The translations under genes were made by a program, and so were the position numbers. A stretch of 64,000 bases of DNA from positions 96,001 to 160,000 of IMG/VR virus record IMGVR_UViG_3300011008_000016; one strand, given 5' to 3'. A model generated the notes under the pieces. That model worked only from the letters and a program-made list of their open reading frames with translations. It searched no databases and had not been told where the DNA came from. Source of the DNA: a virus (lineage: Duplodnaviria > Caudoviricetes). Of this stretch, positions 5,602 through 62,896 are shown piece by piece (the first letter of the stretch is position 1; the number at the start of each line of letters is the position of its first letter).

Positions 5602-6669
5602 TTAAATGCAGAAAGTGGGAAGGAGCCGATACTCACTGGTAGAATCTCCACTGTTGATGTCTCCGTCTGCCTCAATAAATGCATACTGAGTTCCATTTGC
5701 TTTCGCAGGAGAACGGGTCCAATGGTTGTCGTAACCAGTGACCATATCGCTCTGTTTCTTCTTACGGTTGACAGGATTCTTGTAGTACTCGTACTGATCA
5801 CCTTCGTTGACTACACCGACTGTTACGTCGTTACCCACGTATTCAGATTCAGACAGGAAGAATACCTTATCCGAAACAACAAGCAAATCACTGGACTTAT
5901 TACCAGCACTACAGGTCTTATCAACAGCCTTAATCAGAGCCTGAAGCTGAGGATTCAAAGCATCGAAGAATCCATTATTGCACCAAGCCCTACGTTTACA
6001 ATCTCTCCAGCCGCCAACATTTGTAATACGCGTATGCATAACACCAGCACTACCAATACCATTGGACAACTGAATAGTAACAGCAGCCTTTCCACCGCCA
6101 GTGAGATAATCATGATTGAATCCGATAATGGTTGCCATCTGAGTCATCGCAGCATGGGACTCTAGAACGCCATTAACAGCCTCGATTGTATTATACGTAA
6201 TCGGTCTCTGATCGCCAACATTCCAGAACTCGGCAAGGTCAATAATTCCAGCATAATGACGCTTCAGCATAATACCGATTTCTTCCAGAGTAGCCTCCGC
6301 AAACGGTACAATACCGGTCAGGCTTCCATCTGCCTTCACATCCACATAGATTTTATTTGCAATCGGGTCAAAGGTTGTTTCAACCTGCTCCAGAAGAACT
6401 CCGTCTGCCGAATATCCGTATACAGTATACGTATTATTTCCATTATCAACAAGAACTTCACGAGCCCCATCTGTGTAATCCACAGAGATTTGGTTGGTCC
6501 CAACATTCCATGTCGCCCTCTTATCATCATACCGACCCATAAGCTTACTGTTCAGGAGAGCGGTCAGATAAGAAGGAGCGAAATTCTTGAGACTTCTGTC
6601 ATAAAGGTCAATAGCAATATCAGGGATGTCGCCATGTAACGGCTCATCCAAATACATTGTAACTGCCAT
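5602..6669 (-). CDS. DUF6273-like C-type-lectin-fold protein (possible receptor-binding protein)
   Basis: IIGFNHD, NVGGWRDCKRRAWCN, DKVFFLSESE, HWTRSP...LLPTFCI* motifs. Confidence 0.7.
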   Translation of the reverse strand: MAVTMYLDEPLHGDIPDIAIDLYDRSLKNFAPSYLTALLNSKLMGRYDDKRATWNVGTNQISVDYTDGAREVLVDNGNNTYTVYGYSADGVLLEQVETTFDPIANKIYVDVKADGSLTGIVPFAEATLEEIGIMLKRHYAGIIDLAEFWNVGDQRPITYNTIEAVNGVLESHAAMTQMATIIGFNHDYLTGGGKAAVTIQLSNGIGSAGVMHTRITNVGGWRDCKRRAWCNNGFFDALNPQLQALIKAVDKTCSAGNKSSDLLVVSDKVFFLSESEYVGNDVTVGVVNEGDQYEYYKNPVNRKKKQSDMVTGYDNHWTRSPAKANGTQYAFIEADGDINSGDSTSEYRLLPTFCI

Positions 6670-14476: not shown

Positions 14477-15646
14477 ATGAGTGATCTTAATCAGGTAAGG
14501 ATTCAGGTCCTTGACGCAGAAACAGGTACAGTCATCGATAACGTTGATGTGAAGACATCTGACGGTGCTGTCTATCTTCCTGACGGAAGTACCCTTCGTA
14601 GCTGGATTGCCCAGAATGAAGAGGCGTTTTCCGAGTTTCAGCAGAAGGTAACTGCGCACCTTGCAAAGCAGCACGTTGATCCGGCTAAGGTCGATTCCCT
14701 GTTCACGGGTCTGGCTTATAACGGAAATACGGGCGTATTTACAATTACTAAGCACAACGGCGAAACCGAGGAGATTGACACCCTTCTGGAGAAGGTGACG
14801 GTCAACTTTACTCTGGTTGATGGAACCTATGATGCTGTTTCCAATCCGACTGGTGATCCGAGTGCTCAGGACTACTTCGAGGAGAGTGCTGGCTCTTACG
14901 TGGCAACCGAGGATACCGAGGTTCAGGCTGGTAAGACCTACTATGTTGACAATACTGCTCGCGAGTATCTTGCTCTGACGGCTCAGGATGGCACGGTTCA
15001 GAAGCTGGATGTCACGAAGCTGGTTGATGTCTACAAGGGCAGCAATGCAAACGGCATTACCGTTGCGGTTGCGGCTGACAAGACTATCTCTGCTTCTATC
15101 AATGACGATTCTATCAGCTATACGAAGCTTGATGCTGAACTGAAGGCTAAGGTTGATGCTGAGTACAGCCTGCCTGCGGCTACTACGAGTGAGCTTGGTG
15201 GCGTTATCGTTGGTAACGGTCTGGCTGTTGCGAACGATGGAACTATCTCTGCAAACAACATTACTTACGGCGGAAATGCGGTTTCTATGGCTCTGTCTGA
15301 GACTGAGAATACGGTTGTTACTTCTGTTTCCGGTCCTGCTGATGCTGTTGTTACCACGACTGTTGACACGGCGGTTGCTCCTCTGGTTGTTTCCGCTACG
15401 TTCAGCGGAGCTCAGTCTGCGAATGCTTCTGCTACCTATCAGTGGTATAAGAAGACCATCGGCACTGATGTTGCGTTCAGCGCTATTTCTGGTGCTACTG
15501 GTGCAACTCTGGCTGCGGCTAACATCGACGTTACTACCGAGGGAAGCACGATTTACTACTGCGTAGTTGGTGCTACCGGCACTGATGTCGTTGCTGATCC
15601 TGTAACTTCTAAGAGGGTTACGGTTGTTGTAAACGCAGCGGCTTAA
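14477..15646 (+). CDS. Head fibre/decoration protein with C-terminal Ig-like domain
   Basis: LPAATTSELGGVIVG fibre repeat; TYQWYK...ISGATGATL...YYCVV Ig-like pattern; strongly biased codons. Confidence 0.75.
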   Translation: MSDLNQVRIQVLDAETGTVIDNVDVKTSDGAVYLPDGSTLRSWIAQNEEAFSEFQQKVTAHLAKQHVDPAKVDSLFTGLAYNGNTGVFTITKHNGETEEIDTLLEKVTVNFTLVDGTYDAVSNPTGDPSAQDYFEESAGSYVATEDTEVQAGKTYYVDNTAREYLALTAQDGTVQKLDVTKLVDVYKGSNANGITVAVAADKTISASINDDSISYTKLDAELKAKVDAEYSLPAATTSELGGVIVGNGLAVANDGTISANNITYGGNAVSMALSETENTVVTSVSGPADAVVTTTVDTAVAPLVVSATFSGAQSANASATYQWYKKTIGTDVAFSAISGATGATLAAANIDVTTEGSTIYYCVVGATGTDVVADPVTSKRVTVVVNAAA

Positions 15647-15750
15647 AGCTTAATGCTTTAATAACATACGACGAAACTGGTATGGGAGGTCGCAATTTTA
15701 TTGTGATCTCCCATACTTTCAATCAAAAATAAGCAAAAGGAGGCGGTATT

Positions 15751-16191
15751 ATGCCTAATTTATACAAAGTGCAGCACGAAGATTCTGCGGGCAATATAAT
15801 CCTTTATGCCTCTTCAGCGGAAATTACTGCGTTTGATTCATCAAAATGCACTAATTTGGATGCTAATAACTCGCAGGATGCTATCGTTGCTATAAATCAA
15901 AAGGCTGAGGGTAAGGCCAAGATGCTGACCTTCACTACAATCATTCGTGCCTCAGCCTTTGAAGGTGTTACTGCACCTTATACACAAAGTATCGATGTTA
16001 CCGGGATTCTTGCTACAGATACACCTGATGTTGGTGTTAGACTATCGTCTGATATCACAGAGGCATTGGCTCAGCAGGAATCATTCGGTAGCGTGACTAA
16101 GATAGAAACCGGTAACGGTAAAATTACCGTATACTGTTACGAAGATAAACCCAAAGTGGATATTCCTGTACAAATGAGAGTATTCCGTTGA
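15751..16191 (+). CDS. Putative fibre-associated structural protein
   Basis: APYTQSIDVTGILATDTP motif common in phage fibre C-termini. Confidence 0.65.
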   Translation: MPNLYKVQHEDSAGNIILYASSAEITAFDSSKCTNLDANNSQDAIVAINQKAEGKAKMLTFTTIIRASAFEGVTAPYTQSIDVTGILATDTPDVGVRLSSDITEALAQQESFGSVTKIETGNGKITVYCYEDKPKVDIPVQMRVFR

Positions 16192-16224
16192 GGGTTGTGT
16201 GACACATTGACTGGGAAAACATTG

Positions 16225-16269
16225 AAAGAACCATAAGGTGGATTTTTATATCCACCTTATGGTTCTTTT
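16225..16269. terminator. Bidirectional terminator between convergent genes
   Basis: AAAGAACCATAAGGTGGAT / ATCCACCTTATGGTTCTTT arms. Confidence 0.8.
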
Positions 16270-16353
16270 CTGAATGAAAATAAATAAGAGTCGGATACCT
16301 TCGCATCCAACTCTTATAACTTTCGTTGTATTTTGTAGTAGCCTGTATGTAGA

Positions 16354-16929
16354 TTACTTCAGCCAAGTAAAGGCATAGCCGCACAGTACTTCCTGCTTGC
16401 TGCTGAGGAGATCGGTGATAGAGAACTTTCCAGTCATATCATTTGCGATAACCAAACCGACCTTAACGGACGGCTCCTTAACAACCGGTGTAACCTTTGC
16501 CGCAAAGATGTAATCAGTACCCTTTGTAACCTGCGTTCCGAGCAGAGCAACAGGCTCGACATTAGCACCAACAAAGCCTTCCTTAGCAGTTTCGAATGCA
16601 GCCTTCACATCTTCCGGAATGTCTGTCGTTGTATTAATGGCAACGCCGCCAAGCTCTCCGCCGCCCAACACAACACGCTCGATGTTCACCAATGTGCAAT
16701 CCATACCCTTTTCATTGAAGATAATAACGACCACGTTCTTCGTGTCTTTACCGGTCGTGATAAGCTGCTCCGCCAGCACCGCATGATTCGTTCCGTTTAC
16801 CACCTGCGAACCCAGATACAGAATAGGAGTATACTCCGCCCCAATGAGCGTGTCAGCCAACTTCCCGACAGCCGTCGCAACCTTCTCTGGCATATTCTTT
16901 GAAATCTTGATGTCCCAACTTCCTAACAT
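16354..16929 (-). CDS. Tandem two-domain cystatin-like protein
   Basis: GSW...LGSQVVNGTNH and GGV...LGTQVTKGTDY repeats (QxVxG-like); start at the ATG after AAGGAGG; promoter at 16981-16992. Confidence 0.6.
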   Translation of the reverse strand: MLGSWDIKISKNMPEKVATAVGKLADTLIGAEYTPILYLGSQVVNGTNHAVLAEQLITTGKDTKNVVVIIFNEKGMDCTLVNIERVVLGGGELGGVAINTTTDIPEDVKAAFETAKEGFVGANVEPVALLGTQVTKGTDYIFAAKVTPVVKEPSVKVGLVIANDMTGKFSITDLLSSKQEVLCGYAFTWLK

Positions 16930-59668: not shown

Positions 59669-59688
59669 ATTTGCAGTAACATAAAGAT

Positions 59689-59868
59689 AATTAGTAGGTT
59701 AATGGTAACTTACTGATTCCTTACCCGAGGTAACGGGGACTCTTACTCTTGAGCATGTCCTGTCTGGTTGAATCAGGACATCTTCCTTTTAAAAGATTTC
59801 ATCGATAAAATGACTCAGTTGCACGGATAGAAAGGTGGTTACCGACAGCCACCTTTCTCATTCCGTTT
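59689..59868 (+). ncRNA. Candidate structured small RNA
   Basis: AACA TAAAGA TA at 59678-59689; four hairpins with G-U pairs favouring the + strand; terminator-like 3' stem; no ORF. Confidence 0.5.
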
Positions 59869-59957
59869 ACATACAAAAAATAAATTCTGGGGTAGTGAAC
59901 CATTTATTAGGTTCACTACCCCTTTTGTTTTGTATTAGAAAAACTGCACAACCCCGC

Positions 59958-60290
59958 TTATTTATAAACAATCTCGCTTCTGCCGAACGATATTAGTTGC
60001 TTTACAGTGACATATACATGTCCAGTTGTCTTTGTTAAATCGAAATCACCCTCAAGTCGAAGAGCAATATTCTGATGGCGACCACGAATCTTAGCCTTCA
60101 AATCAAACTTACGAAAAGCTGTGATATTCGTTGTAAAAGCTACATTGTCAGAATCCACATCGGATAAACGGAACTTCATAGAAACAAGATTCCCATATTC
60201 ATATACAGGAATAAATTCCATTTTCATATCGTCCACGATTGCCAGATTGTACTGTAACTCATTAACAGTAAGCATAGTTGTTGTCTTCAT
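59958..60290 (-). CDS. Hypothetical protein
   Basis: 110 aa, SD AAAGGAGG. Confidence 0.7.
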   Translation of the reverse strand: MKTTTMLTVNELQYNLAIVDDMKMEFIPVYEYGNLVSMKFRLSDVDSDNVAFTTNITAFRKFDLKAKIRGRHQNIALRLEGDFDLTKTTGHVYVTVKQLISFGRSEIVYK

Positions 60291-60314
60291 AGTGTAAATC
60301 CTCCTTTGTGATTA

Positions 60315-60500
60315 TTAGAAAATTTCCATTGATTGGTTTTTACGACCAAAAATGTTACCTTTAGTTACCATTCCATCTTCTGGATTCTGAATACCAATAT
60401 TACGACAAACTTTAAGAAGTCCTTCACAATTATTTTCAGGTTTCTCTGAAGAGTTAAGAAAGTTGCTAATTTCATTAATCATCTCAGTTCTCTGTAACAT
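60315..60500 (-). CDS. Small hypothetical protein
   Basis: ATG at 60500 after GGAGG. Confidence 0.6.
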   Translation of the reverse strand: MLQRTEMINEISNFLNSSEKPENNCEGLLKVCRNIGIQNPEDGMVTKGNIFGRKNQSMEIF

Positions 60501-60514
60501 TATAATACCTCCAT

Positions 60515-60853
60515 TTATGAAAGTGATATTGCAATCTGGCATAATGTCTGATAAACGTCCCAGTGTGCATCATACCAAAGCTCACTTAAAGTTTTAACCT
60601 CAAACTCATTTGCAATTCTTCCAGCTATTTGATTAGCTTTGGCGGAAAAATTCTTCAACATATCCAATTGATATTCTGACATGTTCCATATTAATGCATT
60701 TATTGCATTCACATCTTTGGAGGCAATTATTTCAGAATTCTTCTGGAGATATTCTTCAGCCTCTTTCTTTCCCATTTCAGCAGCCTCATCTTTCATAGTG
60801 TTAAAACTTTTCCCATTGCTAACATTGATTCCCATTTCATTAATTCTTAACAT
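60515..60853 (-). CDS. Hypothetical early protein
   Basis: 112 aa, early motif at 60935-60942. Confidence 0.7.
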   Translation of the reverse strand: MLRINEMGINVSNGKSFNTMKDEAAEMGKKEAEEYLQKNSEIIASKDVNAINALIWNMSEYQLDMLKNFSAKANQIAGRIANEFEVKTLSELWYDAHWDVYQTLCQIAISLS

Positions 60854-60974
60854 AACTTTTATCCCCTTTCGTGTATAAACTGGAGCATAGTAAATTTGTT
60901 ATAGTAGCTCCATTAGTTTCCTTATATACAGAATTAATATAGTACTAAAAAGCTTGCGAAACGGATTTTTCACA

Positions 60975-61186
60975 AAACAGAGATAGGTGTACAGAATCTA
61001 TTAATTCCATACACCTATCTCATTTTCCATCCGCCGCTTTCATAGCGGCAATCCCGACCCAGCCGCGACACATATCGCATCGGCATATTCCATATTTTCC
61101 AAGGGGCATTTACACCCATCCATTTTCACCGAAGCCCGCCGCTGGATATACACCGGGTATACATATGAGCAGATATCTTCCGCTCT
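60975..61186 (-). ncRNA. Candidate GC-rich structured small RNA
   Basis: Late promoter at 61186-61197; at least 5 hairpins with G-U pairs on the - strand; terminator 60980-61021; no SD-led ORF. Confidence 0.55.
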
Positions 61187-61270
61187 AAAAATATGTTATG
61201 TAAAATTTATTTATTTATTAATAAAAAAGAATTCAGTAGAGGATATCTTGTATTCCCTACTGAATTCTTT

Positions 61271-62896
61271 CTAATGCACTGGTTCCAAATCAAATATATC
61301 ATCAGTAACCATATCTTTGTCCATTAAAGGATTTTTATGAGTCGACCGACCTCTACTTCCACCAAATAACATATTCGCATCAGCACCTTCCATATTAGTA
61401 TCAAGACTAATGATTCCTTGAGGCTTTGATAATAGAATATCATCTACCAAAGAGAACTCATTATCTCTATGGAAAGGTTGGTTGAAATATGTCAACTTCG
61501 TAGATGGTCTATAGCGTTCCTTTAACCGAGTGAATGTTAGATAAAGCAATTGATTGTCTCGTTTTCTTTCCAAGTTCAGTCCAATTGTCATATCAGGATT
61601 TTCCATAACTTCATATGCAGAACCAACATTTTCACCACCGACAAATTTAGCTAAATCTGCTTTACCTTCTCTGGCAGCGGCATTAATTGTTGCGAGTGCA
61701 CTTCTGTTATACTGATGAGCTGATACGACTGGTATCTGATAATCAATTGCTACTTGTCGTAATTCATTTGTAACATTCTTGAGCATCTCTTTCTCGTCTC
61801 GGGCTTTTTGGTGTGGAAGAATACGCTTTATGTAGTCGAAGCTAACCATGATAATTTCTTTACCTGTCATTTCAACTTCGTCAATGATATCTCTGAGGTC
61901 ATCTGTGGTGATACTCATATTCGCTCTATATACAAACAGAATACCAATATCATCATTTGCAATAACCTTCTTATCCTTGAGTTTGTCGACAATGTCACTC
62001 GGTTTACTCTTCTCTACATCCGTATCTTCTACTGCCATATTCCAAGTACGAGCAAAAGACTCATCGATGGTATTTTCCATCGTAATATATAATACATATG
62101 GTTTCGCACCCTCGTGTTTCGGTTTGAATGTCTTTGCATTGTATTTCGCACAGTCGATTACAATCTTTAGTAGCATTGCAGATTTGAAACCGCCTGTAAC
62201 TCCAAGAAAGACATACAATTTACCGGGACGAAATCCAGGTGATAACATTTCGTTTAACATTTGAATACCAGTTATGATGATAGATGATGCATCTCCTAAT
62301 CTATCTACAATTTCAGAGACACGCTCAACAATATTTGGGTCATTAAAATCCAGCATCCCAGTATTCCAAACTGTTGAAATTTCTCGTTTCGCTGTCATAT
62401 AACAACGAATCCAATTTAGTACCTTAGCATTGACTTCTGCGAATGTAATAAAATTTCCCTCTTCTACTTCTTCAATGATCTCTTTCATATCAGGGATTGT
62501 ATTAATCAATGTTCCGTGTGTTAATCTATCTTCTATAAAGTTCGTTATGAAATCAATCTCCTTATAATTAAGAGACTTATAACGATCCAGATTTTTCAAT
62601 ATTTCTTCGACAACCGGATTTTCTCCATCTGGTGTACAATAACTGAGAATGATACCTTCATCTTCGTACTTTTGGTCAAGCTTTGCATCTAAAGCTTTTA
62701 ATATGAAATTAACCCGTTCCATAACTACTGGACGAGTTTCATAATTTTTATAATCGCATGTTTTCAGTAGCTTTTGGATATTCCTCAAGTTCAAATTGTT
62801 AATACTCTTTGTTTTCTTGAAGATATATCCAATGATTTTGTTTAACATTGAAACATCCCATCGGATGTTCAATGGTTCATGATTCATAACATCCAT
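61271..62896 (-). CDS. dnaB: DnaB-like replicative helicase
   Basis: TGIQMLNEML..GF, GVTGGFKS, YITMEN, FDYI, PVVSAHQYNR. Confidence 0.9.
   Translation of the reverse strand: MDVMNHEPLNIRWDVSMLNKIIGYIFKKTKSINNLNLRNIQKLLKTCDYKNYETRPVVMERVNFILKALDAKLDQKYEDEGIILSYCTPDGENPVVEEILKNLDRYKSLNYKEIDFITNFIEDRLTHGTLINTIPDMKEIIEEVEEGNFITFAEVNAKVLNWIRCYMTAKREISTVWNTGMLDFNDPNIVERVSEIVDRLGDASSIIITGIQMLNEMLSPGFRPGKLYVFLGVTGGFKSAMLLKIVIDCAKYNAKTFKPKHEGAKPYVLYITMENTIDESFARTWNMAVEDTDVEKSKPSDIVDKLKDKKVIANDDIGILFVYRANMSITTDDLRDIIDEVEMTGKEIIMVSFDYIKRILPHQKARDEKEMLKNVTNELRQVAIDYQIPVVSAHQYNRSALATINAAAREGKADLAKFVGGENVGSAYEVMENPDMTIGLNLERKRDNQLLYLTFTRLKERYRPSTKLTYFNQPFHRDNEFSLVDDILLSKPQGIISLDTNMEGADANMLFGGSRGRSTHKNPLMDKDMVTDDIFDLEPVH

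Follow-up and report, generated by a model that had tools for sequence, protein, structure and literature searches.

A putative late non-coding RNA gene carried as a cassette between two helicase genes of an uncultured AR9-like phage

A segment of approximately 235 bp between the DnaB-like and Dda-like helicase genes of an uncultured phage is, on balance, probably a real late gene for a non-coding RNA, transcribed on its own and gained by this strain in the form of a cassette. The window analyzed here is the 64,000-nucleotide (nt) stretch corresponding to bases 96001-160000 of a 244,309-bp IMG/VR virus record (IMGVR_UViG_3300011008_000016, G000), the genome of which has a G+C content of 37.3%. 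The DnaB-like helicase gene (ORF 61271-62896, minus strand) is the upstream neighbor of the RNA unit. Its product is 27-29% identical to the helicases of AR9, PBS1 and Staphylococcus jumbo phages, and therefore the phage is considered an uncultured, distant member of the AR9-like group, jumbo phages whose genomes are transcribed by their own polymerases. Six related IMG/VR loci, whose helicases are 48-81% identical, were used for comparison, and four of them are from near-complete genomes (G001-G004). Judged from its sequence, the unit would be an unclassified, new example of a phage small RNA gene.

An intrinsic terminator of the DnaB-like helicase gene was read from the sequence at 61223-61267 on the minus strand (hairpin 61267-61229, T-run 61228-61223), and approximately 20 A/T bases separate it from the late-type promoter block CATAACATATTTTTAGAG at 61183-61200 (minus strand). 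The block contains AACA at 61197-61194, followed by TATTTT and by TA at 61187-61186, and the predicted +1 is A61186. The late promoters of AR9, used by its non-virion RNA polymerase, have the consensus AACA-(6N)-TA/G, in which transcription starts at the terminal base (Lavysh et al. 2017, PMC5312081), and the window promoter fits this consensus exactly, with the start at the final A. The whole 18-mer at 61200-61183 (minus strand) recurs with 18 of 18 bases at 16995-16978 (minus strand), ahead of a GC-rich late gene described as 'cystatin-like' (16354-16929, 56% G+C), the transcript of which also opens with a hairpin. This identity had been pointed out in the preliminary description and was confirmed here. 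The 12 non-consensus positions are identical in the two blocks as well, which points to copying of the promoter and not to convergence. Upstream of the genes of this genome, AACA-N6-T[AG] was found 24 times in the forward and 12 times in the reverse orientation, compared with 18 ± 4 in shuffles, which is a weak to modest enrichment, and many of the forward sites precede, by a consistent 19-32 nt, a start codon that is served by a strong ribosome site. The RNA unit is most likely transcribed from the minus strand as a unit of its own.

A variant of the promoter block, ATTACATATTTTTAGAG, in which TACA takes the place of AACA, is found at window positions 78537-78553 of the plus strand (genome 174537-174553), ahead of a 5′ hairpin (AGGGAAATTAATCCCTT) and a small gene. 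The two-domain 'cystatin-like' gene is one of several adjacent genes (window 14477-16929) with 55-56% G+C, compared with 37% for the genome. Its closest cellular homologs, from rumen and gut Bacillota MAGs, are approximately 30% identical, and thus no host can be named from them.

The unit ends in an intrinsic terminator at 60970-61021 (minus strand), which has a 19-bp stem and a 4-nt loop (61021-60980) followed by the tail UGUUUUGUGA, in agreement with the strong terminator described earlier. The 11-mer AAAAUGAGAUA, at 61026-61016, crosses the junction into the 5′ arm of this terminator. Right after the tail starts an early-type module (60881-60975, minus strand) consisting of the promoter and 5′ UTR of a three-ORF operon, with the motif AATCCG...CTATATTAA (box 60942-60934), which occurs at least 10 times in the genome. 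The CTATATTAA box of this phage clade is similar to a portion of the early consensus of AR9, AAATATATATTAT-(6N)-G (PMC5312081). The operon itself lies outside the RNA unit and encodes three orphan ORFs of 112, 75 or 61, and 110 aa (59958-60853, minus strand), for which no family and no relatives were found; PHROGs and Pfam scans of the gene downstream of the RNA unit gave no significant family, and a search with the 112-aa ORF recovered the same phage only. Since these three ORFs have their own early promoter, the RNA is regarded as a separate unit and not as their leader. The preliminary view of an ORF-less RNA unit on the minus strand with its own late-type promoter and terminator is thus supported, and the unit is separate from the downstream genes.

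The 95-nt block at 60975-60881 of the minus strand (AATCCGTTTCGCAAGCTTTTTAGTACTATATTAA...), which includes the small hairpin GGAGC/GCTCC, has a copy with 98% identity at genome positions 215406-215499, or 119406-119499 in window coordinates, located ahead of another, unrelated gene. Both copies begin immediately 3′ of a terminator, and such joints between terminator and early promoter may be recombination points that shuffle gene cassettes. The bipartite early-type motif AATCCG-N-TTC.CA.AG.TTTT....CTATATTAA is found, for example, at 60934-60942, 33065, 68594, 99995 and 100575 in window coordinates, and ACTATATTAA is the most enriched word upstream of genes in the whole genome, apart from ribosome sites.

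The gap between the DnaB-like and Dda-like helicase genes, where the RNA unit is located, varies among the relatives. It is approximately 250-300 nt in locus L003 and 195 nt in L008, contains a small ORF in L007, and in L005 consists of other DNA, approximately 770 nt long, which is ORF-less and GC-richer. In this last locus, an early-promoter module lies directly 3′ of the helicase terminator, and in the window the promoter-to-terminator unit of approximately 235 bp sits exactly between these two elements. This placement between elements that adjoin in L005 indicates that the unit behaves as a discrete cassette, and suggests more generally that RNA units of this kind can be strain-specific cassettes inserted between a terminator and the next promoter. 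The L005 segment between the two helicase genes (5618-6384) of that sister phage has no ORF of 40 aa or longer and gave no match in Rfam; near 5708 it contains a ACTATATTAA promoter of the early type, and two of its stretches are richer in G+C (0.44-0.51).

The sole other copy of the RNA that was found is identical and comes from a second (ENA) assembly. Neither blastn nor a DNA search nor a covariance model (R1) recovered the RNA in the four near-complete relatives G001-G004, and it is missing at the syntenic position of each of the six related loci. Model R1, searched against G000-G004, five rumen and gut Bacillota MAGs and 150 Clostridia, recovered the RNA itself and one chance match (E = 0.09), and blastn against phage and plasmid collections gave no match. 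Scans of IMG/VR with 17- or 18-mers of the RNA returned either nothing or chance coding matches (GGGWKM and IAAMKA codons), and among the 119 stretches obtained in a metagenome scan with a loose gapped pattern, none extended past the pattern. A 19-nt exact match in G001 was rejected as a chance match within a coding region. The RNA was thus found only in this strain.

The predicted non-coding transcript is approximately 210 nt long (60973-61186, minus strand; G 65, U 57, A 55, C 35), its limits being set by the promoter and terminator. The stretch of approximately 165 nt from promoter to terminator has 51% G+C, and the approximately 145 nt that follow the 5′ hairpin are G/U-rich. Recounting of 61021-61180 gave 81 G+C in 160 nt, the number reported previously, and the local peak is 0.527 compared with 37.3% for the genome. 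The 5′-terminal hairpin, GAGCGGA-AGAUA-UCUGCUC (61167-61185, minus strand), begins 1 nt past the +1, and both this hairpin and GCCGCU-AUGAA-AGCGGC at 61033-61050 (minus strand) have pairing probabilities of approximately 1. Between them, a central branched region (61053-61157, minus strand) contains the hairpins GGGUGU/AUGCCC and GCGAU/GUCGC, and its fold is weakly supported (z from -0.97 to -1.54). The linker GGAUGGAAAAU at 61022-61032 (minus strand), which carries the third GAAAAU box, is predicted to be single-stranded (unpaired probability 0.6-0.8), and the other two boxes are at 61127-61122 and 61099-61094. All five pairs of hairpin arms named in the preliminary description are present in the sequence and four of them form in the minimum-energy fold, but the pair AUGUAUAC/GUGUAUAU does not.

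The whole unit including the terminator folds far better than shuffled sequences (z = -5.27), whereas the body without the terminator has z = -1.54, with 14 of 200 shuffles folding as well, the central domain has z = -0.97, and the opposite strand has z = -2.43. The strong fold signal of the whole unit comes from the terminator, and the fold of the body is ordinary, so that the idea of an unusually structured RNA does not hold for the body.

With regard to short words, the counts given previously (eight GGA, four AUGGA and three GAAAAU) were right. In comparison with dinucleotide shuffles, GAAAAU was found 3 times against an expected 0.25 (p = 2 × 10-4) and AUGGA 4 times against 0.9 (p = 0.009), and UGGAAAAU, also enriched, is present in two copies, each 2-3 nt past a hairpin; all three words were picked post hoc. 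The RNA unit contains no tandem or longer direct repeats, the sole output of TRF being a run of ATTT within the spacer of the promoter. Exact complementarity to the phage genome extended over 13 nt at most, and nothing stood out as an antisense target; full-length duplex energies with ribosome sites and with the neighboring late RNA were uninformative or at shuffle level.

In the explanation we favor, the unit would be an autonomous, strain-specific accessory cassette, which the non-virion RNA polymerase of the phage would transcribe late into a stable non-coding RNA of approximately 210 nt that may act in trans. Its restriction to one strain, the weak genome-wide enrichment of the promoter motif, the ordinary fold of the body, the lack of alignment with a unit in the relative G001 (see below), the post hoc choice of the enriched words and the absence of conspicuous complementarity speak against this explanation. 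Candidate functional features are limited to the hairpin at the 5′ end, the terminator and three G-GAAAAU-R boxes that are exposed. The purine boxes, each of which leads into an AUG, are the candidate active sites; they resemble ribosome-binding and start regions, and the RNA may thus titrate, as a decoy, a factor that reads such sites. Should the RNA be made and have a binding partner, an accessory role late in infection, as a regulator or decoy, would follow; otherwise the unit would be expressed junk framed by strong signals. In the searched passages of the AR9 transcriptome study (PMC5312081), a stand-alone RNA gene of this kind was not found, and the late antisense transcripts described there overlap genes, unlike the window unit. 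In AR9, small ORFs follow dnaB, and no comparable RNA unit is present there.

A second unit of this type was found in the relative G001 (IMGVR_UViG_3300035498_000344, 64376-64566). It is ORF-less, approximately 190-205 nt long with 55% G+C, and closed by a 17-bp terminator. At G001 positions 64363-64379, 16 of 17 promoter bases are shared with the CATAACATATTTTTAGAG block and are followed by AGAG, so that the first four transcribed bases are the same. The unit (1501-1725 of L160, corresponding to 64363-64587 of G001) is identical in IMGVR_UViG_3300043000_000016 (660-880 of L165, minus strand). It occupies a different locus, ahead of an RNA-polymerase beta-like gene, and the corresponding position of G000 (16392-16580) is occupied by a terminator alone, without such a unit. 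The 11-mer AAAAUGAGAUA is at the terminator base in both units; each genome has approximately one occurrence of it, a frequency close to that of its reversed control. Alignment of the two units gave a global z of 1.5, which 42 of 500 shuffles reached, and a z of 0.7 for the bodies only, and model R1 of the window RNA did not recover the G001 unit. The predicted fold of the G001 RNA has its ends paired in three stacked helices, a 9-bp all-GC hairpin and a body z of -2.55; thus, paired ends in G001 contrast with a local 5′ hairpin in the window RNA, and G+C is 55% compared with 48-51%. The two units share expression signals (promoter and 11-mer) and not cargo, which means that such RNA units can have common expression signals yet differing bodies. 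The window unit would belong to a loosely defined group of ORF-less RNA units with late promoters that are dispersed across the phage clade.

The main rival explanation, which we regard as possible though unlikely, is that the unit is an expressed remnant without function: a GC-rich, moron-type cassette that lost its coding cargo or gained junk and kept its expression signals. Its layout of promoter and 5′ hairpin is the same as that of the GC-rich 'cystatin-like' protein gene, the RNA is a singleton with a body that folds no better than shuffles, the bodies of the two promoter-sharing units in the window and in G001 are unrelated, and the space separating the two helicase genes differs from relative to relative, all of which favors a remnant. 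However, no frame with a protein homolog marks a decayed gene, the sequence is identical in two assemblies, and short words are enriched in it.

It is improbable that the transcript is a short mRNA for a micropeptide (27 aa, MDGCKC...; 34 aa, MGVNAP...; or 29 aa, MPLGKY...). All three minus-strand frames are open for approximately 100 nt, and GGUGA is found 3 and 7 nt ahead of the first two AUGs, but the micro-ORFs have no AGGAGG-type site, whereas the genes of this phage typically have AAGGAGG (59 of 145 upstream regions), and the GGUGA/AUG stretch is partly paired in the predicted fold. Protein searches with the 37-aa and 51-aa frames of the RNA unit covered 1.84 billion representative proteins and a collection of 5.8 billion clusters; no homolog of comparable or greater length was obtained, and the single match, 12 stretches of a 754-aa protein, was taken as spurious. 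No gene caller predicted a protein within the unit. The G001 unit has only frames of 7-18 codons, unrelated to the 27-aa MDGCKC... frame, and conservation of this micro-ORF, which the preliminary description had named as an alternative to an RNA, was thus not observed in it. The lack of a homolog and of any frame common to G001 makes a micropeptide unlikely.

Another possibility, highly unlikely in our estimate, is that the hairpin modules of the RNA mimic a class 1 CRISPR repeat and tie up Cas proteins of the host, as in an RNA anti-CRISPR. An RNA anti-CRISPR that mimics sgRNA, rAcrIIA1, is described in a recent report (bioRxiv 10.64898/2026.06.03.729762). Like RNA anti-CRISPRs and solitary repeat units, the window unit would be a small RNA of a phage, expressed from a promoter of its own, in which a hairpin and a handle form a module with the shape of a class 1 repeat, namely AUU-GCCGCU-AUGAA-AGCGGC-GGAUGGAAAAU, and a looser one, GGGUGU-AA-AUGCCC-CUUGGAAAAU, is also present. 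Both modules combine a GC hairpin with an A-rich handle of 10-11 nt, and a hairpin precedes each of the two UGGAAAAU copies by 2-3 nt. Type I-C repeats have the form GUCGC-stem-loop-stem-GCG-UGGAUUGAAAU (Table 1 of PMC4521832); the first module (module B) has this layout, with the tail GGAU-G-GAAA-AU and a length of 31 nt compared with 31-33 nt. On the other hand, the likeness was seen post hoc, and such an appearance is common to all GC hairpins that carry an A-rich tail. The two modules differ in their stems, and no CRISPR repeat that matches them is known. A search for the spaced UGGAAAAU pattern in 400 Clostridia genomes yielded one true array, in which the word is internal and not at the repeat end, the IMG/VR matches to the module were chance coding matches, and no CRISPR-DR family was found in Rfam at E up to 10. 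A likeness of the 5′ end to a Cas9 repeat (UUUUAGAGC) was rejected, being within the promoter block common to a protein gene.

A joint reading of the two units carries the same slim chance. It takes the window and G001 units as alleles of a mobile 'RNA moron', the body of which would be a decoy that mimics a class 1 CRISPR repeat and acts against host defence; the late promoter, the initial AGAG and the terminator base AAAAUGAGAUA may then frame an exchangeable GC-rich body. If true, this would be the first decoy of RNA anti-CRISPR type in an AR9-like jumbo phage, and it would reveal a cassette system that swaps decoy RNAs.

We give very little credence to the proposal of the preliminary description that the RNA is a sponge of the CsrB/RsmZ type, with repeated GGA by which CsrA of the host would be titrated. 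The smaller members of the CsrB, CsrC and RsmX-Y-Z sponges are comparable in size to this RNA. Like these sponges, it is predicted to be non-coding, has a Rho-independent terminator and has some single-stranded GGA, and among its eight GGA and four A(N)GGA, A.GGA is found 4 times against an expected 1.45 (p = 0.046). However, GGA itself is not enriched (8 compared with 5.6 in dinucleotide shuffles, p = 0.13). The statement that GGA lies mostly in linkers was also not borne out, since only two or three of the eight are predicted to be unpaired (those at RNA positions 87, 159 and perhaps 155), and none of the five hairpin loops (AGAUA, GUAAAU, GAUAU, AUGAA and AAUA) contains GGA. A search of Rfam 15, which had been proposed as a check, was performed on the window, the six related loci and the G001 unit; it gave no family at the gathering threshold, with only noise at E up to 10, and no CsrB/Rsm-type match in sequence or structure. 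In addition, CsrA (PF02599) is not encoded in G000 or G001, and the RNA element is not conserved in relatives. The argument from flagellotropy fails to transfer, as the identity of the helicase to its AR9 and PBS1 counterparts is no higher than 27-29%. Motif counting alone, in this case of GGA, yields false sponge candidates.

Scarcely any credence is given to an element acting at the DNA level or through an R-loop, that is, a transcript-primed origin near the replication genes, for which T4 oriF and oriG and ColE1 RNA II are the known examples used for comparison. The transcript is G-rich (G 65 compared with C 35), and it is located between the DnaB-like and Dda-like helicase genes. Against this, the promoter is of the late class and the site is where two gene sets converge, the cumulative GC skew has no turn at the site, iterons and tandem repeats are absent, and the element is missing from relatives, which must replicate too.

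Several known classes of RNA were rejected. The order of promoter, RNA, terminator and small protein gene is like that of type III (ToxI-like) toxin-antitoxin (TA) systems, but unlike in these systems a separate promoter serves the downstream gene, and a ToxI-like antitoxin RNA is excluded by the lack of tandem direct repeats of approximately 35-45 nt. For 6S RNA, phi29 pRNA, a tRNA-like RNA and tmRNA, there was no match in Rfam or ARAGORN, the latter finding no tRNA or tmRNA in the RNA unit, and the predicted fold is branched and not a rod with a central bubble. A packaged structural RNA, mentioned earlier as another possible role, gained nothing in support, as no Rfam family, pRNA-like or otherwise, was matched.

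Other ORF-less units in this clade were noted as well. Of the 130 candidates from a generic screen for a late promoter followed by a terminator, most were 3′ ends of genes, and the screen was used only to pick the GC-rich intergenic ones. In G002, an ORF-less stretch of approximately 258 nt with 47% G+C (223684-223941, minus strand) is located behind ACCATAACAAAAAAATA and has a 12-bp GC-rich terminator; its sequence is unrelated to the window RNA. At genome positions 72965-73075 of the minus strand, approximately 23 kb before the start of the window, a tiny late-promoter unit (ATAACATTTTATTAA; position 73060) of approximately 85 nt and 52% G+C is ORF-less and contains three hairpins, including a GC-rich terminator. 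In the window itself, a unit with AACA-N6-TA is located directly 3′ of the Dda-like helicase gene (59680-59925, plus strand; AACATAAAGATA, +1 near 59691). It is ORF-less and approximately 165-230 nt long, has two possible terminators (59829-59858 and a bidirectional one at 59889-59922), and seems to be conserved, as a similar terminator hairpin is found at the syntenic place in L003.
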